NCBI GenBank assembly: GCA_963666975.2
Contig: CAXVYR010000004.1
Span: 1,248,001-1,312,000, forward strand
Direction: 5' to 3'
Length of the DNA: 64,000 bases
DNA from: Terriglobia bacterium
Lineage (GTDB): Bacteria; Acidobacteriota; Terriglobia; 2-12-FULL-54-10
The position numbers and the translations under genes are program-made. Position 1 is the stretch's first letter; every line of letters begins with the position of its first letter. Positions 48,187 to 64,000 of this stretch are shown here, in pieces. The notes below the pieces were generated by a model. It made no database searches. It was not told the DNA's origin and saw only the letters and a program-made list of their open reading frames with translations.

Positions 48187-49290
48187 ATGATCTACCGAAT
48201 CCACCGCCGGACGCGCCTCGTCGTTTTCACTATTTGTGTCGTCGCCGCAATGGCAGTGTCGGCCGTTCGGCTCCAAATCCAGCCGACTCCGGTGCCGTTC
48301 GCGAAGCTCGTCGAGGAACTCTCCGAGCCGAGCGGATATTTCGACACCGACAATCTCATTTCAAACGAAAAATCGTACCTGCACGTCATGCCGCATCTCG
48401 AGCAGCGCGGTATCATAGGCGGCATCTACATCGGCGTTGGCCCCGATCAGAACTTTTCCTACATCGCTCGCATCCGCCCCACAGTCGCGTTCATCGTCGA
48501 CATCCGGCGCGACAACTTGCTGCAGCACCTGCTGTTCAAGGCTCTATTCGCGACAGCGCGAAACCGCATGGAATACTTGAGCCTGCTGACCGGCAGGCCC
48601 GTTCCCGACGGTGTCGAGAGCTGGCGCGATGCCAGCATCGACCGGATCGTCGCCTACATTGATGGCACAAGGCCGTCGGCCACGCTCGCGCTCGACCGGC
48701 GGCTCCATGACGTCATCCAGCGGTTCGGCATCCCGGTATCGGTCAAGGAGTATGCGACCATCGACCAGTTTCATGCGGCTTTTGTCAACTCGGGACTGTC
48801 GCTTCGGTTTCAGTCTTTTGGGAGACCAACGCAAAGCTACAACCCAACCTATCGCGAGCTGCTGACCGAGACCGACCAGGAGGGTCGCCAGTTGAGCTAC
48901 CTCGCGTCAGAAGACGACTTCCAGTTTGTCCGCTCCCTGCAGCGACGCGACGGCGTAATTCCGGTTGTGGGCGATTTCGGCGGGACGCACGCCTTGGCTG
49001 CGATTGGGCGCTGGATGACGGAGCACGATGAGCGCCTGTCGGCCTTCTACGTATCGAACGTGGAGAATTATCTGTTCCGCAACGGCAACTTTGGGCGGTA
49101 TATGGAAAACCTGAACCGCTTCCCTCATACCGATCGAAGCGTGATTATCCGGTCGATCTTCGGCCGGTTGGCGCGGTCCGTGTCGGCGCCCGGCTACTAT
49201 AGCGCGTCGATCGTGCAGGATCTCGATGAATTGCTCGCGAACTTCTCAGCCGGGAAGTATCGAACCTACTCAGATCTCTTGCGCCGATGA
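48187..49290 (+). CDS. Conserved exported hypothetical protein (SEPxGYFDTDNLISNE / YIGVGPDQNF family)
   Basis: N-terminal TM/signal; motifs GVGPDQNFSYI, VDIRRDN, PVVGDF, FYVSNVE. Confidence 0.75.
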   Translation: MIYRIHRRTRLVVFTICVVAAMAVSAVRLQIQPTPVPFAKLVEELSEPSGYFDTDNLISNEKSYLHVMPHLEQRGIIGGIYIGVGPDQNFSYIARIRPTVAFIVDIRRDNLLQHLLFKALFATARNRMEYLSLLTGRPVPDGVESWRDASIDRIVAYIDGTRPSATLALDRRLHDVIQRFGIPVSVKEYATIDQFHAAFVNSGLSLRFQSFGRPTQSYNPTYRELLTETDQEGRQLSYLASEDDFQFVRSLQRRDGVIPVVGDFGGTHALAAIGRWMTEHDERLSAFYVSNVENYLFRNGNFGRYMENLNRFPHTDRSVIIRSIFGRLARSVSAPGYYSASIVQDLDELLANFSAGKYRTYSDLLRR

Positions 49291-49538
49291 ACTCCACCGA
49301 TTCAACAGAAGAGCGAACACGAGCGATGGATAGGTGCGGCCGTTGTACGTCCAGTGGTCGACCCCTGAGGCCAGAGAACCATTCCTAAACAGTAGGCGAC
49401 TGGGGGGGAGTGATCTGGGACTAGACCTGTTTTAGAGTTCATGTATCCCATATTGAGTTCTTGTCAGGGCGCGGTTTGACGGGGACCCCGTGAGGCAGCG
49501 GTAAACCCAGCTTTGGTTGCCCCCCTAGCGTTCGGGGA

Positions 49539-49610
49539 CCGCTTGCTAGAGCCTGCCCTGAGCCATGTCCCGAGCGAAGCCGAGGGATTGCCGAAGGGCG
49601 CGCGGCTCTG
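49539..49610. repeat. Triple-nested palindromic repeats
   Basis: Family A halves (ccgcttgct / cgcgcggctctg) enclose agagcctgccctgagc|ttgccgaaggg (reverse complement of 46727-46753), which is itself split by catgtcccgagcgaagccgaggga. Confidence 0.75.
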
Positions 49611-49632
49611 ACTATGCACGAACCGTGAAAGT

Positions 49633-51114
49633 CTAGAACGTCACCAAAGTTTGCAAGTAACCGAACTGCGAGGCCTGTGACCCCTGGGTGCCGCGGGCAA
49701 ACTCTCCCGGCAGAAACACCGAGTACCCTGCCAGCATCCTGACCTGCTCATAAAGAGGAAAGGCAAGCGTCAGGTCAATTTCGTGTCCCAGGTCGGTGCC
49801 GAGCAGGCCGGTGGGATCAATTCCCAGCACCTTGCCGCCTGCGTTCTTCCAAGCGCCTCGCTCCTCGGCGAGCAGCAGGCGGTGATAGCTTACCTGAGTG
49901 CGGACGTTGGCCCGAGGCAGGAAGGCGAAGTAGGGTTTGAAATCCTGCATGTTCCGCCACCCCATGTAATCCCCATAGCCATAGTGAAGATGGTTGGTGG
50001 GGAAAAGGTTGTGGAACTCCCCAGAACGGCCGTCCTGCGGGTCGCTGTCTCCGGTGGCAAAGTCATACTCAAAACCAAACTCCGGCGAGAAGCGCGCAGC
50101 AAACCGGTAACGGGCGCTGGCAGCCACCGCTGCGGCACGGTGCGTATCGGGACCCCGCTGGCCCGCTTGGTAGGCGCTCTCCATGTCGTACCTAAAACCG
50201 CTTTGAAAAGCGGCAAAGTGCCGGAACCCGAGCGTGACGATTCGTGTTGCTTCCGGGAGAGACGCAGATGCTTCGCCGCCAATCTCCCGCCCATCCCGGA
50301 GATACAACACATAGGGTTCCAAACCCATTCCGGAGGCGCTGGGACCGATTCGGGTATACAAGCCGATCAAATCCTGGCTGCCGTCGCCACGGTTCGAGTT
50401 GCGGCGGTCGGTCACGCGGCTGAAAAGAAACTCCGAGGACCACTGCGGCGCGGCATAGGTCAGCTTCAAGGCGTCAAATGACCGGCCGATATTGTTCCAG
50501 CCAAACGCCCCGATGAGCCGCTGGTTGCCGTAGCTCACCTCCTGGCGGCCCAGCCGCAGGCTCAGCCGCGGATGCAGAAACTCGTCCACCTGGAAGTATG
50601 CCTGATGCAGGTCGATGTTGGACTCGTTCGACGCCGTAGAGCCCTCCTGACCCCAGAGGCGCGAGTCCTGCAACTGAACCAGGCCGGAGAGGTTCTCGCT
50701 CAGCCGGAGGCGGGCATTCAGCCGGATGCGTTGCAGCACGACGTTATTCACCGGATTGGTTTCCGTGAAGTTGCTGCGGGACTCGGGACGAAACCTGATT
50801 TGCGCGCCGAAAGTGACCCGCTGCGGAGGAGCTTCCGTCGGCGCGGCTGGGGCGGTTGCGGCTGCCTGCAGCGGCGGAGACCCGCTCCCGGCAGGGCCGG
50901 CGCTTTCGAGACTTGCCAGGCGGTCCCTCAGGCTCTGGTTCTCCTGTTCGAGCGCAGCCTGCCGCTGTTCCAATTGGGCGAGCCTTTGGATCAGGGATTC
51001 CATATCGTTCTCGTTGCCCTGCGCCAGCCCGGAGGTGGTAAACAAACCAGTGACCGGGATAAATATAAAGATGCTAAAAATCGCAAATTGCTTCCAGCAG
51101 GTTGGGTGATTCAT
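49633..51114 (-). CDS. Alginate-export-family (AlgE-like) outer-membrane porin with N-terminal coiled coil
   Basis: Signal peptide, LQDSRLWG, DLHQAY, LGRQEVSYGNQRLIG..W..RSFDA, FHNLFPTNH, C-terminal F. Confidence 0.85.
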   Translation of the reverse strand: MNHPTCWKQFAIFSIFIFIPVTGLFTTSGLAQGNENDMESLIQRLAQLEQRQAALEQENQSLRDRLASLESAGPAGSGSPPLQAAATAPAAPTEAPPQRVTFGAQIRFRPESRSNFTETNPVNNVVLQRIRLNARLRLSENLSGLVQLQDSRLWGQEGSTASNESNIDLHQAYFQVDEFLHPRLSLRLGRQEVSYGNQRLIGAFGWNNIGRSFDALKLTYAAPQWSSEFLFSRVTDRRNSNRGDGSQDLIGLYTRIGPSASGMGLEPYVLYLRDGREIGGEASASLPEATRIVTLGFRHFAAFQSGFRYDMESAYQAGQRGPDTHRAAAVAASARYRFAARFSPEFGFEYDFATGDSDPQDGRSGEFHNLFPTNHLHYGYGDYMGWRNMQDFKPYFAFLPRANVRTQVSYHRLLLAEERGAWKNAGGKVLGIDPTGLLGTDLGHEIDLTLAFPLYEQVRMLAGYSVFLPGEFARGTQGSQASQFGYLQTLVTF

Positions 51115-51230
51115 TTTCGCCTCATTCTTAGGATGGATCAAGTTGGAATGGAGCATCCCCCACAGGCGCAAGTTTCCAGGCGAAGCTGCCTGGGACACTA
51201 GAGCGGATCCCCAGTTGTTATAGACCGGTT

Positions 51231-51314
51231 CCGAGCCGCGACCGTGAGGGAGCGGGTCCAAAAATAACTCAACCGACCAGCATTTGTGACCGCTTGCTTA
51301 CGCGCGCGGCTCGG
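51231..51314. repeat. Inverted doublet of family A repeats (REPIN-like)
   Basis: ccgagccgcgaccgtgagggagcgg ... ccgcttgcttacgcgcgcggctcgg. Confidence 0.7.
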
Positions 51315-51449
51315 ATTGGCTCGGCTTCCGGTGAACCTTGGTCTACACTATCGCGAGAACCGCTCTAGTCAGGTTCCTATGGGAACAGGGCTGGGCACCG
51401 GTTCAAGACCGGGTTCCGTATTTTCGCATTTATATTTCCTCCAGCGAGT

Positions 51450-52661
51450 TTAATTATGATATTGGAGGCTTTCCCTTAAATAGGGATCATTTACCGGAAC
51501 CAGGGGCGCTTGCCGCACGGCGCGAAGAAACACAATTAAGAACAGCCCCACTGCTCCTAGAATCGCGCCTACCTCCCAAACTCCAAAAACCGGAACCGGA
51601 CCCACCGTCGGAGGAAAAATCATGAGATAAACATCCAGCCACCGGCCCGCCAGGATGACGATGGCGACCTTGCCCAATACCGCTGGATTTCGCTTGGCCG
51701 ACCGGGGCAGAAGCACCAGGAAAGGAATAACCCAGTTGAGAAATATATTCAGAAGGAAAACAGGTTCCCAGAACTTGTGGAGCCGGTGAACGAAGTAGAT
51801 GGTCTCCTCGGGAATGTTCGCATACCAAACCAGCATGTACTGGCAGAACCAGATGTACATCCAAAAGGTGCTGAAGACGAACAGAAGTTTGCCCAGATCA
51901 TGAAAATGTTCCTCGTTCACAAAGTCCCGCAGCGGACCGGAGCTTCTTAACCAGATCAGCAAAAGAATCAGCGCGGCCAATCCTCCCGAGAACAGGCCGG
52001 CAAAGTTATACACGCCGAAAATGGTGCTGTACCAGTCTGGCTCGAGCGACATGATCCAATCGAAACTGGCCAGCGAGAACGTCACCGCAAAAACAACCAG
52101 AAACAGCGCAGAAAAACGCACGTTCCTGCGGGTGTGGCTGAAATCGCCGTCGCGGTCCTGACGCCGGGAGGTACGAACAATCACATAGGCCAGCGCGATC
52201 CAAAGAAGCAGATACACGGCGGAACGAATCCAAAAAAATGGAAGAGTCAGCCAGGCTGCCTTAAAGCCCGCCAAAGGTTCCGCGCCTTCCGATCCTCCAA
52301 CCCAGGAATACATCGACGGCTGGAGGAGGAAAACCGTTGCCAGTCCCAAAGCGGCCACGGGCAGCACCGCCGACATCGCCTCCGGCACCCGCCGCAGGGC
52401 CACGCTCCAACTGGCGCCGATGACGTATTGCAAGGCCACGAAGAATACGGCAGACAACCCGATTCCCACCAGAAGGTACCAGCCCAGAAGAAAGTTCGGC
52501 CAAAAGCGGTCCGGGGCGAGAATGGCGCCTGCCAAAAGAATCGCGCCTCCCAGGATGGCCACAGATTGAATCTGGCGCACCGTCTTTGCGGAGGGCCGAA
52601 AGTCGCTGAGGTTCGCCGTGTCTAGGTTCCTGGTCTCTAGGTTCCTGATCTCTGGATTCAT
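51450..52661 (-). CDS. actF: Alternative complex III subunit ActF
   Basis: Polytopic; LRRVPEA, FDWIMSLEPDWYSTIFG, HDLGK, WYANIPEE. Confidence 0.88.
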   Translation of the reverse strand: MNPEIRNLETRNLDTANLSDFRPSAKTVRQIQSVAILGGAILLAGAILAPDRFWPNFLLGWYLLVGIGLSAVFFVALQYVIGASWSVALRRVPEAMSAVLPVAALGLATVFLLQPSMYSWVGGSEGAEPLAGFKAAWLTLPFFWIRSAVYLLLWIALAYVIVRTSRRQDRDGDFSHTRRNVRFSALFLVVFAVTFSLASFDWIMSLEPDWYSTIFGVYNFAGLFSGGLAALILLLIWLRSSGPLRDFVNEEHFHDLGKLLFVFSTFWMYIWFCQYMLVWYANIPEETIYFVHRLHKFWEPVFLLNIFLNWVIPFLVLLPRSAKRNPAVLGKVAIVILAGRWLDVYLMIFPPTVGPVPVFGVWEVGAILGAVGLFLIVFLRAVRQAPLVPVNDPYLRESLQYHN

Positions 52662-53248
52662 CGTGTCTCTGCTTCTTCCGCGCTCTGCTGCTGTAGCGAA
52701 CGAACGTACAAGATAGTTTTCCAACGGTCTTCCCGGGAAAGCTGCGAGGCATAAGAAGGCATGTTGCCCTGGCCAAAGCTGAGAATTTGAAACATCTGGC
52801 CGTCCTTCATGCGGACGGCTTTTTCTTCCATCAACGACGCCGGCGGAGGAAAGCCCCGCAAGACAACCAGCCCGTCGCCCTTTCCCGAAACGCCGTGGCA
52901 GGGCACGCAGAAAGTAGCGTACATCCGGGCTCCCCGCTCCACGGAGGGTTCTTCTTCTAAAGAAAATGGGTTCACCAATTCTTGTCCTGCCCGGAGGGCG
53001 TCCTCCAGCGTGGGCGCGTATTGCAGGGGAAGCGCACCGCGCGGGATGGTGCCCGGCACCGGCATCTGCAGGGTTTTCCCGTCCGCAAAGTTCAGGTTGG
53101 GCGAGAAGGCGTCGTAGGGGATGGAATGGACCATCTCGGGCAGAAATTCGCGATTGGGTTGCGAAGCGTCCTGCCCGGCGCCGAAGTTCAAACCGAAGGA
53201 GGCGATGAGGGCGCAGAGAAGCAATATGTTTACACCGCGAAGCGACAT
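52658..53248 (-). CDS. actE: Alternative complex III monoheme cytochrome c ActE
   Basis: PVPGTIPRG, CVPCH, MPSYA, DRW. Confidence 0.88.
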   Translation of the reverse strand: MSLRGVNILLLCALIASFGLNFGAGQDASQPNREFLPEMVHSIPYDAFSPNLNFADGKTLQMPVPGTIPRGALPLQYAPTLEDALRAGQELVNPFSLEEEPSVERGARMYATFCVPCHGVSGKGDGLVVLRGFPPPASLMEEKAVRMKDGQMFQILSFGQGNMPSYASQLSREDRWKTILYVRSLQQQSAEEAETR

Positions 53249-53300
53249 CCGAAAATCTCCTGTGATTCAGCTTTTCATTCGATTCCTATTCGATCGATTC

Positions 53301-53819
53301 CTATTCGACGCGTTCTTCAATTGCAACAGCGTTGAAGTTTCCCAGTAACTGTTGCACCTTGGCCAAGTCAAAATCGCCGCCGGTTTGTTCCAGGATGAGC
53401 GCAAAGCGGTCGTTGGTCACCCGGGGCGCGGCCAGCACTGCCTTTCTTCCGGGAAGCAGCCGGCTCACTGCGAAAAATGCGATCACGGTGCTCACGCCGG
53501 CAAACAGCACCATAATCTCAAAGGTCAGCGGGACGAACGCCGGAAGGGAGTCCCAAGGCTTGCCTCCGACGTTAACAGGCCAGTCCATCGCCGAGGCCCA
53601 GTATTCGAACCCTACCTTGGCGGCGGCGCCGAACAATCCCAACAGGAAACAGACCCAGGGCAACCGCGAGGGCGACAGGCCCATCGCTTTGTCCAGGCCG
53701 TGCACGGCGTAGGGAGCGTAGACATCCACAATTTTCAAGCTCCGGAGCCGCACCGCGCGGGTTGCGCCCAAGATGTCTTCTTCGTGTTCAAAGGTTGCGG
53801 CCAGCAGTCGGCGACTCAT
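53301..53819 (-). CDS. actD: Alternative complex III subunit ActD (DUF3341)
   Basis: YAPYAVHGLD, DWPVNVGGKP, PAFVPLTFE. Confidence 0.9.
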   Translation of the reverse strand: MSRRLLAATFEHEEDILGATRAVRLRSLKIVDVYAPYAVHGLDKAMGLSPSRLPWVCFLLGLFGAAAKVGFEYWASAMDWPVNVGGKPWDSLPAFVPLTFEIMVLFAGVSTVIAFFAVSRLLPGRKAVLAAPRVTNDRFALILEQTGGDFDLAKVQQLLGNFNAVAIEERVE

Positions 53820-55189
53820 CCCTGTGCTCCCTTCTTGGGCTTGCCGTCGTTCAACACTCCCTTCACCTCGCCCATGGCGATGACTGGCAGGAAGCGGCAG
53901 AAGAGCAAAAAACAAGTAAAAAACAGTCCGAAGCTGCCCGCCAGAGTCGCCAATTCAATCGATGTGGGAACATATCCGCTCCAGTTCGATGGCAGATAAT
54001 CCCGCTGCAACGATCCGGCGATGATGACAAACCGCTCGAACCACATCCCCACGTTGATCAAAATTGAAATGACAAACACGATCCCCAGGTGGGAGCGGAC
54101 TCGCTTTGACCATAGCAACTGCGGGATGAGCACGTTGCATCCCACCATGATCCAGTACCCCCAGCCCAGCGGGCCCAGGGCGCGGTTCATAAACGCAAAC
54201 TGTTCATATTGGTTGCCGGAGTAGAGCGCGGTAAAAAACTCCGTCAAGTAGGCGAGCCCCACCATGCCGCTGGTGGCAATCACGATTTTGCACATCGCGC
54301 CGACGTGGCGATGGGTGATGTAGTCCTCCAACCGCATCAGCTTCCTGGCGAGGATCATCAGCGTCAGGACCATCGCCATGCCGGAGAAGATGGCTCCCGC
54401 CACAAAGTAGGGCGGGAAGAGGGTCGTATGCCAGCCGGGAATCATCGACGTGGCAAAGTCGAAGCTGCCGATGGTGTGCACGGAGACCACCAAGGGTGTG
54501 GCCAAACCCGCCAGGAGCAGATAGACCGTTTCATAGTGCTGGCACGTCCTGTAGGAGCCGTTCCAGCCCAAACTGAAAAAAGCAAAGAGGCGGCGGCGCA
54601 ATCCGGGTTTCAGACGGTCGCGGACCGTCGCCAAATCCGGGACCATCCCCACGTACCAGAACATCAGTGAGATGATGAAATAGACGGAGATGGCGAATGC
54701 ATCCCAGGCCAGAGGCGAGCGGAAATTAATCCACAGGGGGCTCCGGAAGTTGGGGTAGGGGAAAACCCAGTAGGCCAGCCAGGGACGCCCCATATGAATG
54801 AGAGGGAAAATCCCGGCGCACATTACGGCAATCAGCGTCATTGCTTCAGCGGACCGGTTGACCGAGGTGCGCCACCTCTGGCGCAATAGGAACAGGATGG
54901 CGGAGATCAGCGTTCCGGCATGCCCGATGCCGATCCAGAACACAAAATTTGTAATATCGAAAGCCCAGCCAACGGTGTTGTTGAGCCCCCAGGTTCCGAT
55001 CCCTGTAGACACCTGGTAGGTGACGGCAGCCATCCCCACCAAAAGAACCGTAACCGAAGCGAGAAATGCCGCCCACCATAGCGCCGTCGGCCTGCGCTCC
55101 ATCGGCACGCAGATGTCCTCCGTCACCTCCGAAAGCTGCTTGTTTCCCTGAATCAGGGGTTGCTGAAGCACCACGTCGGCACTAGCCAT
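53816..55189 (-). CDS. actC: Alternative complex III subunit ActC (NrfD family)
   Basis: ITNFVFWIGIGHAGTLISAIL, RSAEAMT, HMGRPW, GMWFERF. Confidence 0.93.
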   Translation of the reverse strand: MASADVVLQQPLIQGNKQLSEVTEDICVPMERRPTALWWAAFLASVTVLLVGMAAVTYQVSTGIGTWGLNNTVGWAFDITNFVFWIGIGHAGTLISAILFLLRQRWRTSVNRSAEAMTLIAVMCAGIFPLIHMGRPWLAYWVFPYPNFRSPLWINFRSPLAWDAFAISVYFIISLMFWYVGMVPDLATVRDRLKPGLRRRLFAFFSLGWNGSYRTCQHYETVYLLLAGLATPLVVSVHTIGSFDFATSMIPGWHTTLFPPYFVAGAIFSGMAMVLTLMILARKLMRLEDYITHRHVGAMCKIVIATSGMVGLAYLTEFFTALYSGNQYEQFAFMNRALGPLGWGYWIMVGCNVLIPQLLWSKRVRSHLGIVFVISILINVGMWFERFVIIAGSLQRDYLPSNWSGYVPTSIELATLAGSFGLFFTCFLLFCRFLPVIAMGEVKGVLNDGKPKKGAQG

Positions 55190-56124
55190 GGTGATTTCCA
55201 TCCTCGCTTTCAGGCCGGTTGCGAACCAACCGCAGATACCCGACCGCAGGCCGGACATTAATCTCTTCCAGCACCCGGTAGACGCGCTCGCTTTGCAGCA
55301 GCAGCGACACCTTGCTGGCCGGATCGTTCACATCACCGAAAACAATGGCCTTCGTTGGGCAGGATTGCTGGCAAGCCGCCTGCACATCACCATCTGCTAA
55401 GGGTCGCCCCTCCCGTTTCGCTTCGCTCTTGGCATCCTGAATTCTCTGGATACAGAAAGAGCACTTTTCCATTACGCCACGGGATCGCACAGTGACGTCC
55501 GGATTGAGCACCAAGTTCGCCATGCGGTCCTCGCGCGGGTAATCGAACCAGTTAAAGCGGCGCACTTTGTACGGACAGTTGTTGGCGCAATAGCGCGTGC
55601 CGACACAGCGGTTGTAGATCTGGTGATTGAGCCCCTCTTCGGTATGGACCGTCGCCAGCACCGGGCAGACGGTCTCGCAGGGAGCATGCTCGCAATGCTG
55701 GCAGAGCATCGGCTGGTGCACTATATCCACTTCAGCTTCATCGGCGTCCACTGAGTAATAGCGGTCGATACGAATCCAGTGCATCGCGCGCTTTCGCCGC
55801 ACCTCGTCCTTGCCGACCACGGGGACGTTGTTCTCCACCTGGCAGGCGATGACGCAACCGGAGCAGCCGGTGCATGCATTCAGGTCAATCGCCATGCCCC
55901 AGCGATGGCCGGGGAAGGGATGATCCCGTGGCCAGAGATCTTCTTCCTGGACGTGATGTTTGTGCCCCCCGGCGGCGGGGTCCTTCAGAAACTCCGGCAA
56001 GGTGGTTTCCTGAACGATGGGTCGGGGCTCGGCATTCCCGATGGCGAGGTGGTGCGGAACGCTCAATGTGTGATGACTCTGCGTGCTTGCCAGCTCGTGC
56101 CTCTTGCCGGTTTTGGCGACGGAC
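55182..56124 (-). pseudogene. actB: ActB C-terminal Fe-S domain; 5' part removed at an IS3 end
   Basis: KTGKRHELASTQSHH, CTGCSGC, MHWIRIDRYY, CQHCEHAPC, CVGTRYCANNCPY, CSFC. The frame runs into the IS end at 56125; no molybdopterin-like domain and no actA. Confidence 0.85.
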
Positions 56125-56425
56125 TGTGCCCCGTCAGGGCTTGTTGGACAGGTAGAGGGTAATAGTTAAGGTGATGTTTTTGGCTCATCGTAGAGACTGA
56201 AAGGAACGAAGATGAGACAAAAACAAGACGACAGGGGGGCGGTCGAGAAGGCCGTCCGGGAGATCAAACGCAGGACGCGGCGCAGGTTCAGCCCGGAAGA
56301 CAAAATCCGCATTGTATTGCAGGGACTTCGCGGCGAGGACAGCATCGCGGAGCTGTGCCGCCGCGAGGGGCTGCACCAGAACCAGTATTACCACTGGAGC
56401 AAGGAGTTTCTGGAGGCTGGCCGGC
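56125..56425 (+). mobile_element. IS3-family left end with truncated OrfA
   Basis: TG end tgtgccccgtcagggcttgttggaca; OrfA from 56212 RRRFSPEDKIRIVL..IAELCRREGL..YYHWSKEFLEAG. Confidence 0.8.
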
Positions 56426-56793
56426 AATCCATGCGGAAGGGGAGCGACCCGCGAACCACAGTAACCCGGCGAATCAGTTCGTGATGCCCGTGCCCGCTGG
56501 CAGGCCGGCCAATCGGCATATAATCGGTAACCTCGCCGACTCCCTCAGGGCAAAGGAACCGCGTCACGAGGACGTTGGTACCCGGCCAGTAATAACTGCT
56601 TCTGGGTGACTTTACCCACAGTGGGAGCAATATGAAATCGCCCGCCTTTCTTGTCATCGAGGATAGCCGCAAACACGCTGGGTGAATCGAAATGGGGATA
56701 ACAAAGCCAGTCAATCGAACCGTTCATCCCCACCAGAGCCACAGTATGCATGTCACCGATCATCCCGTAGTTTTCGATTGGTTGATATGGCAT
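56415..56793 (-). pseudogene. GH15 glucoamylase/trehalase N-terminal fragment, frameshifted and truncated
   Basis: [32 protein letters not shown], then a frameshift, then [16 protein letters not shown]. Confidence 0.82.
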
Positions 56794-56984
56794 CACAGCA
56801 CTCCAGGGTCACGTTTCAGCAGAACGCTCAGGTCCCGAGAACGCTTAAAGTCGAGAGTGAAATTTAACAGGTACTTGGTCATTTGAGACTCCGTGCTTCC
56901 TAACACCCGCCTGATCAGCTAATTTGTTCCGGCTCGGCGGGCACCAATTCGCTATAGCAGCAGTTGAAGATACAACGCTTCGAA

Positions 56985-57872
56985 TCAGGTGCGGTCGCTG
57001 ATGCGCGCCGCCTGGCGATTGCCCCGGTGCGCATAAAGAAGCTCGCTGAGTTTGTGGTGATGCAGCTTGGCACAGAGAACGGCTTGGACCCCCATCGCCC
57101 GGGTGTAGACTTCCGCCGCCAGAAGCATTCCCAGCGGAGGAGCGGTGAAATAGAGCCAGAGCGCGTTCCACAGCTGCGGGGGCAGTGCCGATCCGAGCGA
57201 ACGTGCCGGGTTCATACTCATCCCGGAAATCGGCGCTTCTACAGTAATGTAAGTGGCTACCAACAAGCCTGCAAACAAGCCGGTGAACCGTGCAACGGAC
57301 CGCCGGTTGGATACCACAAGGACCGTAAGCATGAGTCCGAAGGAAATGACCGCCTCGGCCACAAATGCTATCTCTATGCCTCGTGAACCTGGAACGGTTG
57401 CTACAAAGTTAACCGCCGGGTGGGAAAGCCACGTCCCGAGCAGGCCCCTAACGAGCAATACGCCTCCGACGGCGCCAAAAAACTGAGCCGCCACGTAGAA
57501 GAAGGCATCGGGTAGTTTCACCTTTCCCAACCGGAAAAAGGCCAAGGTAATGGCAGGATTGATATGCGCCCCGGATCGTTGGCCCCACGGAGAATAAATA
57601 ACGCCGATGGCGGTTAACCCCATTGCCAGTCCCATCAGGACGCGGCGCGCTACCGGGTTCTCAATCGATTCGTACAGGGGTGATTGTGGGTATTCCAACA
57701 AGGCGCCGAACACGCAGGCGGCGACCATAAATATACCGAGCCCGGCTGCCTCCATCAGATACTCCGGCCAATGCTGGGCCAATGCAACACGGAAGTTGTG
57801 AACCCCCCATTCCCCTGGGCCGGGGGAGCCGGTGGAATTCAAGATTTTATTCTTCCCGGCTTCTGTGTTCAT
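56985..57872 (-). CDS. MIP-family aquaporin
   Basis: SGAHINPAIT and SMNPARS (two NPA boxes), about six TM helices. Confidence 0.93.
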   Translation of the reverse strand: MNTEAGKNKILNSTGSPGPGEWGVHNFRVALAQHWPEYLMEAAGLGIFMVAACVFGALLEYPQSPLYESIENPVARRVLMGLAMGLTAIGVIYSPWGQRSGAHINPAITLAFFRLGKVKLPDAFFYVAAQFFGAVGGVLLVRGLLGTWLSHPAVNFVATVPGSRGIEIAFVAEAVISFGLMLTVLVVSNRRSVARFTGLFAGLLVATYITVEAPISGMSMNPARSLGSALPPQLWNALWLYFTAPPLGMLLAAEVYTRAMGVQAVLCAKLHHHKLSELLYAHRGNRQAARISDRT

Positions 57873-57972
57873 GCTTGTAGGGTGACAAACAAAGCTGCTC
57901 GTAAGAGCGGTGCTAACTAACTAATGATGTGAACTGAATTTCAGGTTGAGTTTCCCCGCCTCCCTGACAACT

Positions 57973-58166
57973 CTAGCTCGTTTTCGCAAATGGTGTAGAC
58001 CGCTCCGCCATCGGAACCAGGCAACCTCTTTGGCTGTCATCCTGAGCGAAGCGAAGGATCTGCTTTTGTACAAGGGGATTGGCCCTTACCCGGCGAAAAG
58101 CAGATTCCTCGCTGCGCTCGGAATGACAACGCGTTGTGGTTTACACCATTTGCGAAAACGCTCTAG
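57973..58166. mobile_element. MITE-like element with CTAG-bounded TIRs and an internal palindrome
   Basis: ctagctcgttttcgcaaatggtgtagacc / ggtttacaccatttgcgaaaacgctctag; internal tgtcatcctgagcgaagcgaaggatct...agattcctcgctgcgctcggaatgaca. Confidence 0.8.
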
Positions 58167-58330
58167 CTCGGATCACCGTGGCTACATTCGGATGTTGGAT
58201 GCCACCGAAACCAGAAGGACTCAGTATTTCGTAAGCGCCAAGTTGAGTTCCAGGAGAAACCGCCGCGCTATGGCCCCCGCCTGATTGAAAATAATGGGGA
58301 AAGATTACATGAGGAAAGAGGGTAAATCAA
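58167..58330 (-). pseudogene. Ser/Thr kinase 5' relic with promoter (copy C)
   Basis: AVSPGTQLGAYEILSPSGFGG joined to QHPNVATV; TTGATT-N17-TAATCT upstream; cut by the MITE. Confidence 0.72.
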
Positions 58331-58425
58331 TTGAGTGCAGGGAACTTCCTGGGCCTGTACCGAGCGCTGAGTGCGGTCGAATATGATTCATTTCATAGAA
58401 GAAATCCGCAAGGGAATTCATCTGC

Positions 58426-58455
58426 AAAAAAAAACGGCCCTGAATGCCGGGGCCG
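58426..58455 (-). terminator. Intrinsic terminator after iorB
   Basis: cggccccggcattcagggccg followed by T9 on the minus strand. Confidence 0.75.
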
Positions 58456-58483
58456 CAAGCATTCTTGCCAAGATGTAGCCGGA

Positions 58484-60649
58484 TCAGGCCGTGCTCAGTT
58501 CTGCCGGGCGGATGGGCAGCCGGCGTATGCGCTTGCCTGTTGCGGCGTAGATGGCGTTGACGACTGCTGAGAAGATCGGGGGCGTGCCTGGCTCGCCCAT
58601 GCCGCCGGGGGTTTCCGTGCTGGGCACGATGTGGACCTCGATCTCCGGCATCTCGTTCATCCGCAGCATCTGGTAGTCGTGAAAGTTGGACTGGACGACC
58701 CGGCCCCGGTCGATGAGTATCTCGCCCTTCAGAAGCGCGGTCAGCCCGTATACGATGCCGCTTTCCACCTGCGCCTTGATTGTGTCGGGGTTGATGATCC
58801 AGCCGCAGTCCACCGCCGCCGTGACACGGTGCACACGAACCTCGCCGTCCCGGCCGACGGAAACTTCCGCCACTTGGGCGATGATGCTGCCGAAGGATTC
58901 ATGCACGGAGATACCCCGTGCCCTGCCGCTGGGCAATGGCTTTCCCCAGCCGGCATTCTCGCCGGCTAATTCCAAAGCTGCTTTGTGGCGGGGAGCCTTG
59001 TCGAGCAGTTGCCGACGCAACTCCAAGGGGTCCTTGCCGGCCATGACGGCGATTTCGTCGAGGAAAGACTCCGTGACATAGCCGTTGACGGAATTACCGA
59101 CCGAGCGCCAGTAACCGACCGGAATGCCCGGTTCGAATCTCACATACTCGACGCGAACGTTGGGAATGTTGTAAGGCAGGTCGGCGGCGCCTTCCATAGA
59201 GTTGCGGTCAACGCCTCCCGCTGAATCCAGACCGCGAGGGTTGCCTCGGGCGCGCAGCGAGGGCTGCACGAGCCGCTGCATCCAGGCAACGGGCATGCCG
59301 GACTCATCCAGAGCAGCCCAAAAGCGTGCGTAAGAGACGGGGCGATAATAGTCATGCTGGATATCGTCCTCACGGGTCCAGATCACCTTCACCGGGCGGC
59401 CGACAGCCTTGGAGGATTCCACAGCGTCGGCGACAAAATCGGTCTGGCCGCGGCGGCCGAAGCCACCGCCCAGATAGAGAGTGTGGACCTTGACAGCGTC
59501 CGGCGGCAGACCGGTGATCTCGATCGCTGCGCGGTGAGTGCTGGTCTGGGATTGGGTGGAAACCCAAACATCGCAGCCATCTGCACGGACATCGGCGGTG
59601 CAGTTCATCGGTTCCATGCAGGCGTGCGCCAAGTAAGGGACTTCGTAGGTGGCCTCGAAAGTGCGGGAAGCCCCCGACATGGCAGCGGTGAAGTCGCCGT
59701 CGTTACGCGCCACGGCGCCCGTTTTCTGGCCGAGTTCTGCCAGTTGCTTGCTGATGTCGGAACTGCTCAATCCGGCCAGGGGGCCTTCGTCCCACTGAAT
59801 CTCCAGGGCCTGGACGCCCTTTGTGGCGGCCCAGTAATTGTCCGCGATGACGGAAATACCGGAGCTGATCTGGATGACATGACGGACGCCGGGAACGGCT
59901 TTGGCCTTGTCGGCGTTGAAGCTTTTGACCTTCCCTTCGAAGACGGGACAGCGGACGACCCGCGCCACGAGCATATTGGGCCGCGAGATGTCTATGCCGA
60001 AAACCGCGCTGCCGTTGACCTTCTCTGGAATATCGAGGCGCGCCAGGGGCTGGCCGAGCAGACGGAATTCGTCGAAGTCCTTGAGAGTGACCTGTTCGGG
60101 GACCGGCAGAGTCGAGGCCTTTTCGACGAGCTGGCCGTACTGCAGACGGCGGCCCGTGGAGGAGTGGATGACTTCTCCCTTTTCGGTGGAGCATTCATTT
60201 TCCGGGACGCCCCAGGTCTGGGATGCGGCAGCGACCAGCATGGCGCGGCCGGTAGCGCCGGCCTCGCGGAACAACTTCCACATACCCCGGACGCTGCGGC
60301 TGCCGGCGGTGGACTGCGATCCGCCAAAACCGGGATTGCCGTAGGCGGGGTCGGCAGGCGCCCAAACGGTATCCAGCTTCTGCCAGTCCATGTCGAGTTC
60401 TTCGGCGATCAACATCGGCATGGAGGTCATCACGCCCTGGCCCATCTCCAGTTGCGTGAGAGTGATCGTCACAGTATCGTCGGTGCCGATCTGGATCCAC
60501 ACGTTCGGCTCGAATACCTCCGAAGCAGCCGTCGTTTCCTCATTCATTCCGAGGTAGCCGGGCAAATAAAGCCCGATCAGGAGACCGCCGCCAGCGGCAG
60601 CCCCGACTTTCAAGAATGTGCGTCTGGTGAGATTCATTGCCTGTGCCAT
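58484..60649 (-). CDS. iorB: Xanthine dehydrogenase-family molybdopterin subunit (isoquinoline 1-oxidoreductase beta-like), Tat-exported
   Basis: TRRTFLK Tat motif, EMGQG, TAGS.S, HACMEP, LGGGFGRR, WRSV, GMGEPG. Confidence 0.9.
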   Translation of the reverse strand: MAQAMNLTRRTFLKVGAAAGGGLLIGLYLPGYLGMNEETTAASEVFEPNVWIQIGTDDTVTITLTQLEMGQGVMTSMPMLIAEELDMDWQKLDTVWAPADPAYGNPGFGGSQSTAGSRSVRGMWKLFREAGATGRAMLVAAASQTWGVPENECSTEKGEVIHSSTGRRLQYGQLVEKASTLPVPEQVTLKDFDEFRLLGQPLARLDIPEKVNGSAVFGIDISRPNMLVARVVRCPVFEGKVKSFNADKAKAVPGVRHVIQISSGISVIADNYWAATKGVQALEIQWDEGPLAGLSSSDISKQLAELGQKTGAVARNDGDFTAAMSGASRTFEATYEVPYLAHACMEPMNCTADVRADGCDVWVSTQSQTSTHRAAIEITGLPPDAVKVHTLYLGGGFGRRGQTDFVADAVESSKAVGRPVKVIWTREDDIQHDYYRPVSYARFWAALDESGMPVAWMQRLVQPSLRARGNPRGLDSAGGVDRNSMEGAADLPYNIPNVRVEYVRFEPGIPVGYWRSVGNSVNGYVTESFLDEIAVMAGKDPLELRRQLLDKAPRHKAALELAGENAGWGKPLPSGRARGISVHESFGSIIAQVAEVSVGRDGEVRVHRVTAAVDCGWIINPDTIKAQVESGIVYGLTALLKGEILIDRGRVVQSNFHDYQMLRMNEMPEIEVHIVPSTETPGGMGEPGTPPIFSAVVNAIYAATGKRIRRLPIRPAELSTA

Positions 60650-60650
60650 G

Positions 60651-61115
60651 TTACGCCTCCGCTCGGATCGTCTGCGCCGCGCGGTGAATGGCACGGCGGA
60701 TGCGCTGGTAGGTCCCGCACCGGCAGATGTTGCCCGACATGGCGCTGTTGATGTCCTCGTCGGTGGGGTTGGGGTTGCGGACCAGCAAGAAAGCCGCCGA
60801 CATGATCTGTCCAGACTGGCAATAGCCGCACTGGGGCACCTGCTCGGCGATCCATGCCAGTTGCAGGGCGTGCGTGGAATCGGCCGAGAGGCCTTCGATG
60901 GTCGTAATCTTCTTCCCGGCAGCCGCCGAGACTGGAGTGCTGCAAGAGCGGACCGGAGTGCCTTCCAGATGCACGGTGCAGGCGCCGCACTCCGCTATGC
61001 CGCAGCCGAACTTCGTTCCGGTCATTCCCAGCGTCTCCCGGATGACCCACAGCAAAGGGGTGTCCGGGCTGACGTCCACTTCGTGTTGCTTTCCATTGAC
61101 GTTCAGAAAAATCAT
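60651..61115 (-). CDS. iorA: 2x[2Fe-2S] small subunit (isoquinoline 1-oxidoreductase alpha-like)
   Basis: [32 protein letters not shown]. Confidence 0.92.
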
Positions 61116-61780
61116 GGCCAGCTCCTGAATGTGCGAATGCCCTGCGTGAATTTAAGTCGCCCCCGCAGAGACGGGATTTGATATGGCAAAGTTTATCCAT
61201 TTCCGGGGGCAAGAGCAAGGAAGAAAAGGAGGAAGATGATGGGGGTAGTGGGTAGTTTCCCATTTGCCGACTCTGCGGCCAAGTGACGCAGAAATCGGTA
61301 AATAAAGTGGCGTTACTCGCGGGTAATCGGTGAAGCGACTGTTTGCCAGTATGCTGGGGCGGATAGAAAGCTGCCGCTTCCGTCGGGATAGCCGAGACTG
61401 CGGCACCCAAGAAACGGATTTCGATATCCTCCAGGAATGGACAGATGTCTGAAAAAGCTGATTCTGGATGCCGGGGCGAAGGGTTTTCAGGACCCGGAAA
61501 AGGGCGGCTGAGAGTCTGTGGGACTGTCTGGGAAAAGAATCTTTCTTGGAGGAGTCGGTTGGAAGGAATCGTGTGTATACTGTCAACCGCCGGAGAGTCA
61601 AAAAACTAATTCCGGTTCATGTTCGTCTGCTCTGAGGCTTGTTTCTGCTGTCACCGCAGAGGAATCCGTAGGGGCAGCATATCACGAAACCGCCTCTAAT
61701 ACCTTTCCCGCCTGTGCGCGATATTGACTGCCTTCCAGGTGGTGGTATTCCTGATAGCGGTGGGGGGGGGTCTGAGTGGG

Positions 61781-61836
61781 AATCTATGGGTTCCTATAGA
61801 TTATTGTTTACAAACCGGGGTGTAGATGGTTATCAT
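61781..61836 (+). promoter_or_regulatory. Operator-like inverted repeat plus sigma70-like promoter before the HTH gene
   Basis: aatctatggg-tt-cctatagatt (61781-61802), then TTTACA-N18-TATCAT ending 11 nt before ATG 61848. Confidence 0.5.
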
Positions 61837-61847
61837 TGCTAACATTC

Positions 61848-62060
61848 ATGAAAACGATTACACCCGAACGTTGGTATACCGCAAGAGAGGCCGTCGAACT
61901 TCTGGAGCGCGAAGTCACCGAAGCGACGGTGAAAGAATACTGCAATTCAGGCAAGCTGAAAGGCAAGAAAATGGGACCCAAAAAGCGGTGGATGGCTCTT
62001 GGGTCCTCTATCCAAAAACTGCGACGAGATTGGGGCATCGACGATGCAAAGCGGAACTAG
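61848..62060 (+). CDS. Excisionase-like/HTH_17 small DNA-binding protein
   Basis: WYTAREAVELL..EVTEATVKEYCNSGKLKGKKMG..KRW pattern. Confidence 0.75.
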   Translation: MKTITPERWYTAREAVELLEREVTEATVKEYCNSGKLKGKKMGPKKRWMALGSSIQKLRRDWGIDDAKRN

Positions 62061-62118
62061 CACAGTTCGGCTGAACTGTGGCATCATTACTGCTTTGCCA
62101 ATACCAGAGAGGAGACGC

Positions 62119-62331
62119 ATGCCAGCACCGCAGAAAAAAAGAGGGAAGCGGCGCGCATACACTGACCCACAGGATGCGCTTGCCAGATTTGACAATCCGC
62201 AGGTTCAGCGGGAGTTTCGTAAGTCTATGGACCGGTGGGCAAAAAAAACCCAACCCCTAATTGACGCCGTCCAGTCAGCTGAGCGACTCGACGAGAACGA
62301 TTTCGCCATCAGGATCAATACCAAAGCGTAA
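62119..62331 (+). CDS. 70-aa hypothetical protein
   Basis: Strong SD GAGAGGAG; MPAPQKKRGKRR...SAERLDENDFAIRINTKA; ends 21 nt before the next gene. Confidence 0.7.
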   Translation: MPAPQKKRGKRRAYTDPQDALARFDNPQVQREFRKSMDRWAKKTQPLIDAVQSAERLDENDFAIRINTKA

Positions 62332-62352
62332 GTTTGGGCCAGGCCCACGCCC

Positions 62353-63879
62353 TTGGAAAAACTCGAACAAAAACTTGACTTTTGGAAGCTAGGTGAAAAG
62401 CCCCTCGCGGAACTCCTCCAGCTCGAATCGCCACCTTTCATGGAACGGGGGGAGGCGCACCGTCAGCTTTCGTTTGTCGAGAAGCACGTCCGCGAGCTAG
62501 GGGCAAAATTAACGGTTGTTGAGAATCGTTATGTGGACCGGGACTACATGGAGGAACACAGTGTTTTTTATTCCAAGAACTTAGTCCCGTATCACAACTG
62601 GTGCCAACGCCTGCACTTCTTTAGGATGGAAGGGAAAGACCTAAAAGGTGAATTTAGGCGGCTCCGGGGTATCCGTGATAAGGCAGATTTTCAGTCAGAG
62701 TGCGAAGAATTTTCCACGAGGCACTACTTAGGCTTTAGTGTTATCAAACCCTTACCAGGGTGTCCGGTGGGGCGCACGGTCTTGCGGCCTTTCCCAGAAG
62801 ATGCTTCACCGGACTATCAACGAGAATTCAAATGCGTTTGCCTAAGAAACAAAGCTCATTTGCTCGGCATTCCGCTCTCCGTAACCGGCCTTCCATTTCA
62901 GCAACAAGATCTTGGCGTTAGCGCCTGTGCTACAACGGCCCTCTGGTCCGCACTACAAAGAGCCCGGGAACTCGAAGAAAGTGGGACCGCAACTCCAGCG
63001 CAAATAACGCTTCGGGCTTCTCAGTTTACGCTTCCATCCGGCAGAGCCATGCCGTCAGAAGGATTATCTGTCGACCAGATGTGCCAGGCAGTGCATTCCT
63101 TTGGTTACGCGCCAATTCTCTTCCGTGCGGAAGATTTCGAGTCTTCGCGGGGCGTTCTGTACGCCACGGTTCGTTCGGGAATCTCTCCCGTTCTGATTTT
63201 GGAGCAATCAAAAAAGAGCCTTAAACATGCAGTTGCGGTGGCTGGCATAAAGCTTAGAAAACAGCATGAGCCGGATTTCCTTATAGAGCTGATCGATGCT
63301 CGGTCTAACGACATGGCGGGGCTGTACATCCATGACGACCGGTTCGGACCTTATCTCACCACTCAGATTGAGAAGCATGGGAATCGATTACTGCTTCATG
63401 TGCCGTTTCCACCTCCACTTAAATCCGAGACCTGGCTTCTCTCGCACATTCTCATCCCAATGCACGCCAAGATACGCCTGTCGTTTGGCGATCTTCGGAA
63501 AGCAGCCATTCATGTGGTCCGGTCAGTTCATTCATTCCGGGCCAATGTCATGAACGTTCCGGAAACCGTGATTTCCTGGGATTCTCGGATCATCAGAGCG
63601 CACAATTACGTAGAGGAGATTCTTTTGTTTGGTGAGCAAAGGGTGTCTGACCTGTTAGTCGAGAGACTTTGTGCCGCGGTTTGTTTCTCCCGGTATCTGG
63701 CTTTGGTCAGAATCCGGGCGGACGATCTAGACCCAATCGATGTCCTTCTCGACACGACGAGCACGGAAAGGAATCTCACTGCGCTTGCGGTTGTCCGGAT
63801 CGGAAACTCCCAGCCAAATACTGCTGCGATGGCCGCTCTTTTGGGAAAGCACTATGACTGCCCGGTGATAGTTAGCTAG
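62353..63879 (+). CDS. Uncharacterised 508-aa protein with a putative papain-like (C39-like) Cys-His-Asp domain
   Basis: FQQQDLGVSAC(192)ATTALWSAL, SPVLIL..H(292)AVAVAG, YIHD(328)DRFGPY. The fold assignment is an inference from motif order. Confidence 0.6.
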   Translation: MEKLEQKLDFWKLGEKPLAELLQLESPPFMERGEAHRQLSFVEKHVRELGAKLTVVENRYVDRDYMEEHSVFYSKNLVPYHNWCQRLHFFRMEGKDLKGEFRRLRGIRDKADFQSECEEFSTRHYLGFSVIKPLPGCPVGRTVLRPFPEDASPDYQREFKCVCLRNKAHLLGIPLSVTGLPFQQQDLGVSACATTALWSALQRARELEESGTATPAQITLRASQFTLPSGRAMPSEGLSVDQMCQAVHSFGYAPILFRAEDFESSRGVLYATVRSGISPVLILEQSKKSLKHAVAVAGIKLRKQHEPDFLIELIDARSNDMAGLYIHDDRFGPYLTTQIEKHGNRLLLHVPFPPPLKSETWLLSHILIPMHAKIRLSFGDLRKAAIHVVRSVHSFRANVMNVPETVISWDSRIIRAHNYVEEILLFGEQRVSDLLVERLCAAVCFSRYLALVRIRADDLDPIDVLLDTTSTERNLTALAVVRIGNSQPNTAAMAALLGKHYDCPVIVS

Positions 63880-64000
63880 GATTGAATATCGGAATTGCCG
63901 AGACTCTCATCGATTTCGACTTCAGTCTCCACGCCCCGAAGCCGTTTCGCATAGCGGTAAGATTCGAGTGCCTCATTAGCAGTGGCAAGTTTAGCGGTGG
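63876..64000 (-). CDS. 3' end of a convergent hypothetical gene (partial)
   Basis: Open frame TAKLATANEALESYRYAKRLRGVETEVEIDESLGNSDIQS* whose TAG overlaps the stop of the 508-aa gene within CTAG. Confidence 0.5.
   Translation of the reverse strand, partial: TAKLATANEALESYRYAKRLRGVETEVEIDESLGNSDIQS

Follow-up and report, generated by a model that had tools for sequence, protein, structure and literature searches.

A candidate accessory module pairing a papain-fold peptidase with a small, predicted cleft-binding partner and a protease-linked neighbour gene in a Terriglobia genome

Introduction

Protease-activated effectors pair with proteases of several classes, as described in PMC12642450. 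The regulators CapH and CapP stand beside Bub operons and are called "controllers of adjacent pathways" in PMC11601596 and PMC13373217; the biological output of BubE-less Bub-like operons is still unknown according to the former. Here we analyse a group of genes at the end of a 64,000-nucleotide (nt) stretch of DNA, hereafter the window, from Terriglobia bacterium (Acidobacteriota; GenBank assembly GCA_963666975.2, contig CAXVYR010000004.1, positions 1,248,001 to 1,312,000 of the forward strand). The group comprises genes for a helix-turn-helix (HTH) regulator, a protein of 70 amino acids (aa), a predicted papain-fold enzyme of 508 aa and, converging on them and running past the window end, a 385-aa protein. 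An annotation made earlier from the bare sequence (the original prediction) had singled out the first three as a candidate undescribed system; the genes are real, but the 385-aa gene makes them four. We tentatively read the four as an accessory module in which a pseudo-substrate-guarded protease would activate or de-repress adjacent stress or defence cargo, a reading that we rate somewhat short of an even chance.

Results

The 508-aa protein is a predicted papain-fold enzyme of a large unnamed family

AlphaFold2 gave a model of the 508-aa protein with pLDDT 94.8 and pTM 0.93, in which C192 opens helix 191-208, H292 lies within strand 290-302 and D328 ends strand 321-328. The protein divides into an N-terminal domain (about residues 1-150), a papain domain (about 150-374, with Q183/Q185, C192, H292 and D328/D329) and a C-terminal domain (about 375-508). 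All 17 Foldseek matches at E <= 1e-3 were bacterial cysteine proteases, the best being Treponema denticola C0362, IdeS and the staphopains (best E 8e-7). The alpha+beta papain fold is thus shared with solved members of clan CA, as is the arrangement of a conserved Gln, a Cys at the N-terminus of a helix, a His on a strand and an Asp on the next strand, so that fold model and residues together place the protein in this clan. The original prediction had proposed a papain-like Gln...Cys...His...Asp layout from Q183, Q184, Q185, C192 (in CATTALW), H292 (in HAVAV) and D328; these residues are where it placed them, and fold and conservation agree with it. Conservation of the triad had been set beforehand as one test that could refute the proposal, and Cys192, His292 and Asp328 proved invariant in 50 homologues of 28-58% identity, together with F182, Q183, Q185, D186, W198 and D329. 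Two further sets of residues are invariant in the same homologues, one in the N-terminal part (E57, D62, Y73, R86, F90, G127, G140, R141, H169) and one in the C-terminal part (R447, D467, T469).

The TTG codon is the likely start of the open reading frame (ORF), since homologues align from residues 5-6, and no hydrophobic signal-like stretch was seen on reading the N-terminus. Searches of Pfam, NCBIfam, PADLOC and PHROGs yielded nothing credible for this protein or for its 70-aa neighbour, the only rows (E 0.03-0.16) being far below the cut-offs, and PDB sequences were matched neither by the single 508-aa sequence nor by a 50-sequence profile. The expectation that no characterised family would claim the enzyme therefore held in these searches. 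For Peptidase C39 in particular we found no profile match, no Gly-Gly leader substrate and no ABC transporter, fused or neighbouring. The family is large, with 3,473 cluster representatives (at 50% identity) at E <= 1e-3, 2,533 at 1e-10 and 899 at 1e-30; the 120 relatives listed in a collection at 90% identity are all "hypothetical" or unnamed and lack a precomputed Pfam domain. No description of the family was found in full-text searches of the literature, outside which lay supplementary tables such as Table S1 of PMC11601596 (Bub operon neighbourhoods) that might mention such genes. On fold and sequence, we regard the 508-aa protein as a papain-fold enzyme of this unnamed family.

The N- and C-terminal domains stay unassigned, which is not evidence of new folds: fold searches with the whole model were filled by the papain domain, and an Atlas search with residues 1-155 returned only unnamed clusters at 0.79-0.84, which is chance level. 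A single relative of at least 890 aa was found; it has 1,043 aa and no Pfam domain, which argues weakly against sensor fusions.

A small upstream partner is predicted to reach into the catalytic cleft

We compared the window's own locus with 79 related loci in species-representative genomes, 80 in all. The small protein is a near-universal upstream partner of the peptidase: a homologue (hidden Markov model search, E < 1e-3) lies directly upstream of the peptidase gene in 46 of the 80, and at deeper-branching loci a small ORF with a similar tail ending occupies the equivalent place. The stop codon of the partner and the start codon of the peptidase overlap by 4 nt in 13 loci. Of four matching plasmid records, three were inspected, and on all three a relative of 25-29% identity has a tiny annotated hypothetical coding sequence (52-57 aa) in front of it.

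In the 70-aa protein a basic N-terminus that varies between homologues leads into a helical body, and the C-terminal tail, SAERLDENDFAIR/INTKA, is conserved; the protein has no beta-grasp signature and no terminal Gly-Gly. The tail motif, hydrophobic-x-hydrophobic-Arg/Lys-hydrophobic, is fixed, and 2 to about 13 residues follow it. When the tail was written as a regular expression (acidic-x(0-2)-hydrophobic-x-hydrophobic-[RK]-hydrophobic-x(0-12)-end, in an ORF ending at most 140 nt from the start of the enzyme ORF), 55 of the 75 loci with enough upstream DNA contained it, against 32 of 4,895 other ORF segments, a contrast that is somewhat flattering because the expression was designed after seeing the family. 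Two of the misses are loci with a frameshifted main gene.

We predicted the complex of the two proteins in three runs, with own alignments for both chains and three controls. The ipSAE was 0.81 (runs 0.80, 0.84 and 0.81) and 0.00 for the best of the three controls. The pass mark lets through 58 of 80 solved complexes, along with 2 of 110 mismatched pairs; with own alignments as input, these counts apply only roughly here. At least 95% of the contacts are common to the runs (164-175 contacts; partner pLDDT at least 82). Partner residues 11-57 pack in the model on peptidase helix 377-402 and residues 488-500, and partner residues 61-70 (DFAIRINTKA) contact peptidase residues 188-193, 289-293 and 329-330, which form a single patch in the triad region. 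The partner helices are therefore confidently predicted to wrap the C-terminal domain of the peptidase, with the tail in the catalytic cleft. The original prediction had suggested a functional link between small protein and enzyme; conserved synteny and the predicted complex speak for it, and homologues keep the small upstream ORF, the lack of which was to refute the proposal.

At the window locus the 70-aa and 508-aa ORFs are in one reading frame, one TAA and seven codons apart (62329-62355). The shared frame is probably chance, since the spacing varies at other loci.

The neighbouring 385-aa protein is protease-linked beyond this family

The minus-strand ORF of the 385-aa protein overlaps the stop codon of the peptidase gene by 4 nt. 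A homologue of this gene adjoins the peptidase gene in 27 of the 79 genome loci, in three arrangements. Most are convergent, one (L007) is co-directional, and in two (L011 and L017) the gene is divergent and precedes the HTH gene. The adjacency spans Acidobacteriota, Verrucomicrobiota, Planctomycetota and Gemmatimonadota. A reverse search, of 80 metagenome loci with a member of the 385-aa family, found the peptidase in 40, and in 21 of the 35 that have room on both sides.

Among the 40 peptidase-less loci we examined the 21 with the most flanking DNA, and 12 of these have a caspase-like neighbour. Three such neighbours were tested and all are Peptidase_C14, two fused to DEAD-box helicase domains and one beside a ThsB-TIR-like gene. 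The 385-aa family thus lies beside more than one protease class, as effectors of protease-effector modules do, and because elsewhere it adjoins caspase-like proteases instead, the 385-aa protein behaves as a protease-linked effector. A single tblastn query, with no profile search, picked up no homologue of the 70-aa partner at the caspase-linked loci. At L119 and L132 the Peptidase_C14-DEAD-box fusions, of about 1,050 aa, stand immediately upstream of the 385-aa homologues and overlap them; this is a second protease-effector architecture for the family.

The 385-aa family has the motif G338-x-G340-x-x-[IV]-R344, in which G338, G340 and R344 are invariant in 26 sequences. The [IV]-R pair is also kept in the homologues that have no papain-fold neighbour, 12 of them caspase-linked: of 18 compared, the 17 that reach the motif all show it, and L098 ends earlier. 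This hinge lies where the model becomes disordered (pLDDT <50 for residues 327-374), just ahead of the C-terminal tail, and the tail of the 70-aa protein shares its local pattern of a hydrophobic residue followed by Arg/Lys. Papain-type enzymes favour substrates with a hydrophobic residue at P2, and cleavage by metacaspase-type enzymes follows Arg/Lys; a cut after the hinge arginine would fit both preferences. From sequence and model, we consider the R344 hinge a candidate cleavage site.

Neither the 385-aa protein nor its 26 homologues had a Pfam match at E <= 10, and an Atlas search gave no usable match. The only outstanding structural match, a weak one, was AglA (Foldseek E 7.8e-3, probability 0.97), followed by the haem domains of nitric-oxide synthases (E 0.016-0.1). 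AglA is described in PMC12866846 as a haem-thiolate guanidine N-hydroxylase of the YqcI/YcgG family that binds haem via Cys44. In the 385-aa family, Cys58, at a helix start in Q-P-C-L-F-G, is nearly invariant (one homologue has Trp). PF08892 was not found in this genome at E <= 10, in a search in which control genomes did register matches. The protein may be a haem-thiolate oxygenase-like enzyme, which the structural resemblance makes a lead, not an assignment.

A sister clade faces a Bub-like operon

In a sister clade of 18 loci a divergently transcribed operon replaces the 385-aa gene. It has a Prok-JAB + ThiF fusion and Prok-E2_E and Multi_ubiq domains, a gene set that is type I Bub-like by PMC11601596. 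BubE is absent from these operons; DUF6527 was found in one of five such genomes, about 0.5 Mb from the locus. An XRE-type HTH gene lies upstream of the small gene in 16 of the 18 loci, and the one HTH protein tested matched the PADLOC model capH along almost its entire length (E 2.9e-15). These CapH-like repressors mostly conserve F-L-R-A-S, and F[LA][RKQ]A[SA] is found in 12 of 12 sequences. A plasmid of Pseudomonas aeruginosa has a CapH/CapP-like pair beside a complete Bub operon, with a distant relative of the partner-peptidase pair downstream of BubE.

Two sister-clade loci (L042 980-2467 and 9142-10935; L033 7745-11233) contain an HD/dGTPase-like gene, an ORF that by eye looks like a reverse transcriptase, and a 1,162-aa RNase_H_2 + AAA_11/AAA_12 helicase. 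These neighbours lend the loci a defence-island flavour.

The regulator gene and the DNA around the module

Features of the locus are collected in Table 1. That three co-oriented genes lie here, the 70-aa ORF behind a strong Shine-Dalgarno sequence, was confirmed by direct reading, and the DNA is indeed more AT-rich than upstream genes, with a GC content of 0.50-0.54 over 61500-64000 and 0.62-0.64 in the upstream molybdoenzyme genes (58500-61000).

Table 1. Features at the right end of the window, in window coordinates. L002 is a locus numbering that reaches past the window end (L002 335-620 = window 61335-61620).
Feature	Coordinates	Strand	Remarks
Multicopy repeat, about 280 bp	61335..61620 (L002 335-620)	.	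Abuts the module at its left edge; outside the system
Operator-like inverted repeat, AATCTATGGG tt CCTATAGATT	61781..61802	+	Arms 61781-61790 and 61793-61802
Sigma-70-like promoter candidate, TTTACA-18-TATCAT	61807..61836	+	10/12 positions match
HTH regulator gene, 70 aa from ATG	61848..62060	+	ORF opens at TTG 61836
Two-tier stem-loop	62046..62098	+	Covers HTH stop codon and intergenic space
Small partner gene, 70 aa	62119..62331	+	GAGAGGAG 5 nt upstream
Papain-fold peptidase gene, 508 aa	62353..63879	+	TTG start
Convergent 385-aa gene, 3' end	63876..64000	-	Whole gene 63876-65033 (L002 2876-4033)

The HTH protein resembles the MerR/excisionase-like HTH_17 type (PF12728, E 1.9e-4); the resemblance is plausible, with a score of 22 bits against a Pfam cut-off of 27 that leaves it outside the family at the gathering threshold. 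PADLOC gave no capH match to it. In 18 of the 80 loci a homologue lies ahead of the protease gene, at a distance of 300-670 nt, and the position upstream of the small gene is fixed in these loci, which come from several phyla.

The inverted repeat has arms of 10 nt that are 90% complementary, and is the sole copy at up to 3 mismatches in the 20 kb of L002, where 0 are expected by chance; it may be an operator. A second copy was sought upstream of the 385-aa gene and none was found at up to 3 mismatches. The operator-like repeat of the original prediction is present, and the promoter that accompanied it is there as a sequence, the only such match in 61100-64000, but is not above chance, since shuffled sequence gives 1.9 matches on average. 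The stem-loop has a folding energy of -23.5 kcal/mol (z = -2.3), which 6 of 200 shuffled sequences equal. Its inner tier is the perfect 8-bp hairpin at 62061-62080 noted earlier between the first two genes; no T-run follows it.

The repeat at 61335-61620 has more than 35 matching places, at 77-78% identity, in the same-genus genome G001, and further copies in a second one, G002; it looks like a miniature inverted-repeat transposable element or an element of the repetitive extragenic palindromic kind. Just upstream of the start of the 385-aa gene, L002 4066-4190 (window-equivalent 65066-65190) holds two tandem units of about 66 bp (...GGTACTTCCCGCTATGATACCACGGGGAACGAGTACGCTGATTCAGC...), which could be a regulatory element or an insertion remnant. 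A second short multicopy repeat, with many copies of 73-86% identity in G002, lies at L002 7527-7720 (window-equivalent 68527-68720) between ArgJ-like and M20 peptidase-like genes. On the other side, window positions 57900-58300 contain overlapping ORFs on both strands with low-complexity peptides of the "SLRMT...SEAKDLLL" type, a composition that suggests a short repeated element instead of genes.

Downstream of the module, L002 4449-6151 (window-equivalent 65449-67151) encodes a membrane protein with TM2 and double-zinc-ribbon domains, a HicB-like antitoxin that has no evident HicA, and a VapC(PIN)/Phd-YefM pair. Because G001 keeps the TM2 gene and the VapBC pair, at least these lie outside the module; no G001 match is listed for the HicB gene.

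The module is rare and patchily distributed

The peptidase gene is single-copy in this genome and occurs in 3 of 41 related genomes, the present one included; it was not found in two same-genus genomes (95% and 83% complete). In a sample of 401 genomes from the phylum, two carried the 385-aa gene, too few for a reverse co-occurrence analysis. Further afield, the record titles of the related loci name Acidobacteriota, Verrucomicrobiota, Planctomycetota, Gemmatimonadota, Myxococcota, Pseudomonadota, Chloroflexota, Nitrospirota and Armatimonadota, as well as further candidate phyla and one archaeal metagenome-assembled genome. DNA shared with G001 begins only at the TM2-domain gene (window-equivalent 65336), so that the four module genes are missing at the syntenic site there; a clean insertion site cannot be drawn because the left flank is rearranged in G001. 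The module is thus rare, mobile, patchily distributed and in lower-GC DNA at a synteny break.

Pfam matches (E <= 1e-5) of nine large upstream ORFs (47207-61115), two of which matched nothing, include no Phage_integrase or recombinase family, the ORFs read along 17 kb of downstream DNA show no evident recombinase, and there is no tRNA near the module. The 124 nearest flanking ORFs at related loci fall into 113 different Pfam families, none seen in more than three ORFs; Phage_integrase domains occur in three. Two points raised in the original prediction thus fared poorly: the idea that the HTH gene marks an integrative element has no backing here, with a score below the HTH_17 cut-off and no recombinase among the ORFs covered up- and downstream, and the flanks allow no strong claim of defence-island enrichment.

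Discussion

A proposed guarded protease and its possible targets

We suggest that the tail of the 70-aa partner would act as a pseudo-substrate, or as a decoy that is cut slowly, and so hold the peptidase inactive. Infection, stress or a similar signal would release the peptidase, perhaps because the small protein is lost, and the enzyme would then cut the 385-aa protein after the hinge arginine and activate it. The 385-aa protein would be a latent effector, possibly a haem-thiolate oxygenase-like enzyme, and the HTH protein probably autoregulates the operon. In the sister clade, where peptidase and guard follow a CapH-like repressor and face a BubE-less Bub-like operon, the cargo of the peptidase is, by analogy, probably that repressor, which would be cut as CapH is by CapP. 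The original prediction had left the small protein as substrate, activator or inhibitor, with defence, toxin-antitoxin or peptide processing as possible roles. A defence or toxin-antitoxin flavour is supported, and the 385-aa gene and the sister-clade contexts now make the small protein look like a guard and not an end product, with the neighbour as the likely target.

A more specific version is a long shot: the effector of this clade would be a haem-thiolate oxygenase similar to AglA or nitric-oxide synthase, whose N-oxygenation of guanidine groups would yield something toxic (such as N-hydroxy-arginine, a hydroxyurea-type compound or nitric oxide), which would amount to chemical defence via proteolysis.

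Several points weigh against a guarded protease with adjacent cargo. The whole mechanism rests on prediction and gene context, and the model of the complex supports binding with the tail in the cleft but does not tell substrate from inhibitor. Three of the tails missed by the regular expression have Gln in place of Arg/Lys (L009, L015 and L031). About half of the peptidase loci have neither the 385-aa gene nor a Bub-like operon, and 14 of the 35 well-flanked loci of the 385-aa family lack the peptidase; since cargo or peptidase is missing so often, the pair also works alone, which fits a toxin-antitoxin system equally well. In this window the 385-aa gene is convergent and not co-transcribed. 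The Bub operon on the P. aeruginosa plasmid already has CapH/CapP-like genes, so the pair there is not simply a regulator. No PADLOC model matches the four window proteins except for a weak match of the HTH protein to mad1 (E 0.0013), restriction, integrase or transposase families are few in the mixed set of flanking ORFs, and a search of 50,697 phage records gave no homologue, a result that says nothing either way on defence.

Alternative explanations

The contender to be taken most seriously, though we think it unlikely, is a tripartite toxin-antitoxin system in which the peptidase would be a toxin cutting essential host proteins, the 70-aa protein a labile antitoxin blocking its cleft and the HTH protein an autoregulator, the 385-aa gene and the Bub-like operon being frequent neighbours only. 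The order of regulator, antitoxin and toxin has a precedent in omega-epsilon-zeta. The small gene comes before the enzyme gene, with the 4-nt overlaps mentioned, the predicted interface buries the triad region, and the pair stands alone, without HTH gene or conserved cargo, at the deep-branching loci L051-L079; a patchily distributed single-copy gene with VapBC and HicB genes 1-2 kb away would also suit such a system. Against it, the 385-aa gene stays adjacent across four phyla and three arrangements and its family is protease-linked elsewhere too, and each cargo type tracks one peptidase clade, which argues for a functional tie over chance neighbourhood. A rather unlikely alternative, to which we give less credence, makes the small protein a true substrate, a precursor or tag trimmed after the conserved Arg/Lys like ubiquitin-like precursors or ribosomally synthesized and post-translationally modified peptides; the 385-aa enzyme might then modify the guanidine group of that arginine. 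Such maturation would account for a tail that is predicted to lie in the catalytic cleft and varies in length past a fixed motif, and it recalls both the E1, E2 and JAB genes of the sister clade and the top fold match of the 385-aa protein, AglA, an enzyme that according to PMC12866846 hydroxylates the guanidine group of arginine. However, the family has no ligase or adenylating enzyme that all members share, many loci consist of the pair alone, and a Multi_ubiq protein is already encoded in the sister clade. The small protein lacks a beta-grasp signature and a terminal Gly-Gly. The interface is also large and stable-looking, as expected of an inhibitor or adaptor more than of a substrate in transit, and the 385-aa family pairs with caspase-like proteases at loci where the one tblastn query, made with no profile search, found no small-protein homologue.

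We consider very improbable a reading in which the HTH protein would be an excisionase, and the genes cargo near the border of an integrative element without joint function. The weak HTH_17 and excisionase-type matches, the lower GC content, the synteny break relative to G001 and the few Phage_integrase domains in flanking ORFs would agree with this, but no recombinase was found among the Pfam matches over 14 kb upstream or among the ORFs read downstream, nor a tRNA nearby, and the HTH gene holds a fixed position upstream of the small gene at 18 loci of several phyla. Because a CapH-like repressor takes its place in the sister clade, the HTH protein behaves as an operon regulator. A slim chance is kept for an explanation that we have not considered.

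A guarded protease acting on its neighbours, if true, would give a first functional frame to an unnamed family with thousands of representatives in at least nine bacterial phyla, and would add papain-fold enzymes with a trans-acting pseudo-substrate guard to the known bacterial protease-triggered responses. It would also indicate a missing piece of the BubE-less Bub-like ubiquitin-type operons. The peptidase would then be expected to cut the small protein after R65 and the 385-aa protein after R344, both cuts being abolished by C192A, and the 385-aa protein to have a haem Soret band.

Comparison with known systems

Among clan CA peptidases, the enzyme is closest in fold to the staphopains, the C39 double-glycine peptidases and UfSP/ZUFSP, with which it shares the papain fold, a Cys at a helix start and a His on a strand. 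It differs in being cytoplasmic, in having about 150 extra N-terminal and about 135 extra C-terminal residues, and in the missing Pfam and PDB sequence matches, Gly-Gly leader and ABC transporter noted above. Staphostatin, the co-encoded staphopain inhibitor, binds in a forward, substrate-like direction (title of PDB entry 1pxv). Its fold is a beta-barrel, whereas the partner here is a helical protein with a C-terminal tail. The 385-aa protein is about 140 residues longer than AglA, with Cys58 as a candidate counterpart only of its haem cysteine, and given that it matched neither PF08892 at E <= 10 nor, as a profile, any PDB sequence, we do not assign it to YqcI/YcgG. In type II and tripartite toxin-antitoxin systems an upstream small protein binds and neutralises the downstream enzyme; here binding is predicted (ipSAE 0.81, best control 0.00), and neutralisation would be putative.

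The sister-clade operons resemble type I Bub (6E.1) operons in their Multi_ubiq, Prok-E2_E and JAB-E1 fusion genes, judging from PMC11601596; they differ in lacking BubE/DUF6527, which the same paper describes as universal to Bub operons, and the window itself contains no ubiquitin-like, E1, E2 or JAB gene. The modules of PMC12642450 are alike in several respects: an effector gene adjoins a protease gene, one effector family goes with different protease classes, a conserved site sits at a disordered hinge or tail, occurrence is sporadic, and some related loci have restriction-modification, TIR-like or helicase genes. Here, in contrast, the protease has a papain fold, a word ("papain") that does not occur in that paper, no fused sensor was found in what was a weak search, and a small partner is predicted in the cleft. 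The 385-aa family, a candidate effector family, is not among the ten named in that paper.

CapH and CapP offer a parallel in layout. In the sister clade a CapH-like HTH gene and then the protease gene stand divergent from a Bub-like operon, and the CapH/CapP-like pair on the P. aeruginosa plasmid has the same layout, with the HTH gene next to the divergent promoter and the protease gene distal. CapP is an ImmA/IrrE zinc metallopeptidase, whereas the enzyme here is a Cys-His-Asp papain-fold protein with an extra small protein encoded between the two genes; likewise, CapH is an XRE HTH protein, whereas that of the window is HTH_17-like and its cargo one convergent gene. Neither protein of the window therefore belongs to those families, but by analogy the peptidase may work like CapP without being one of its relatives.

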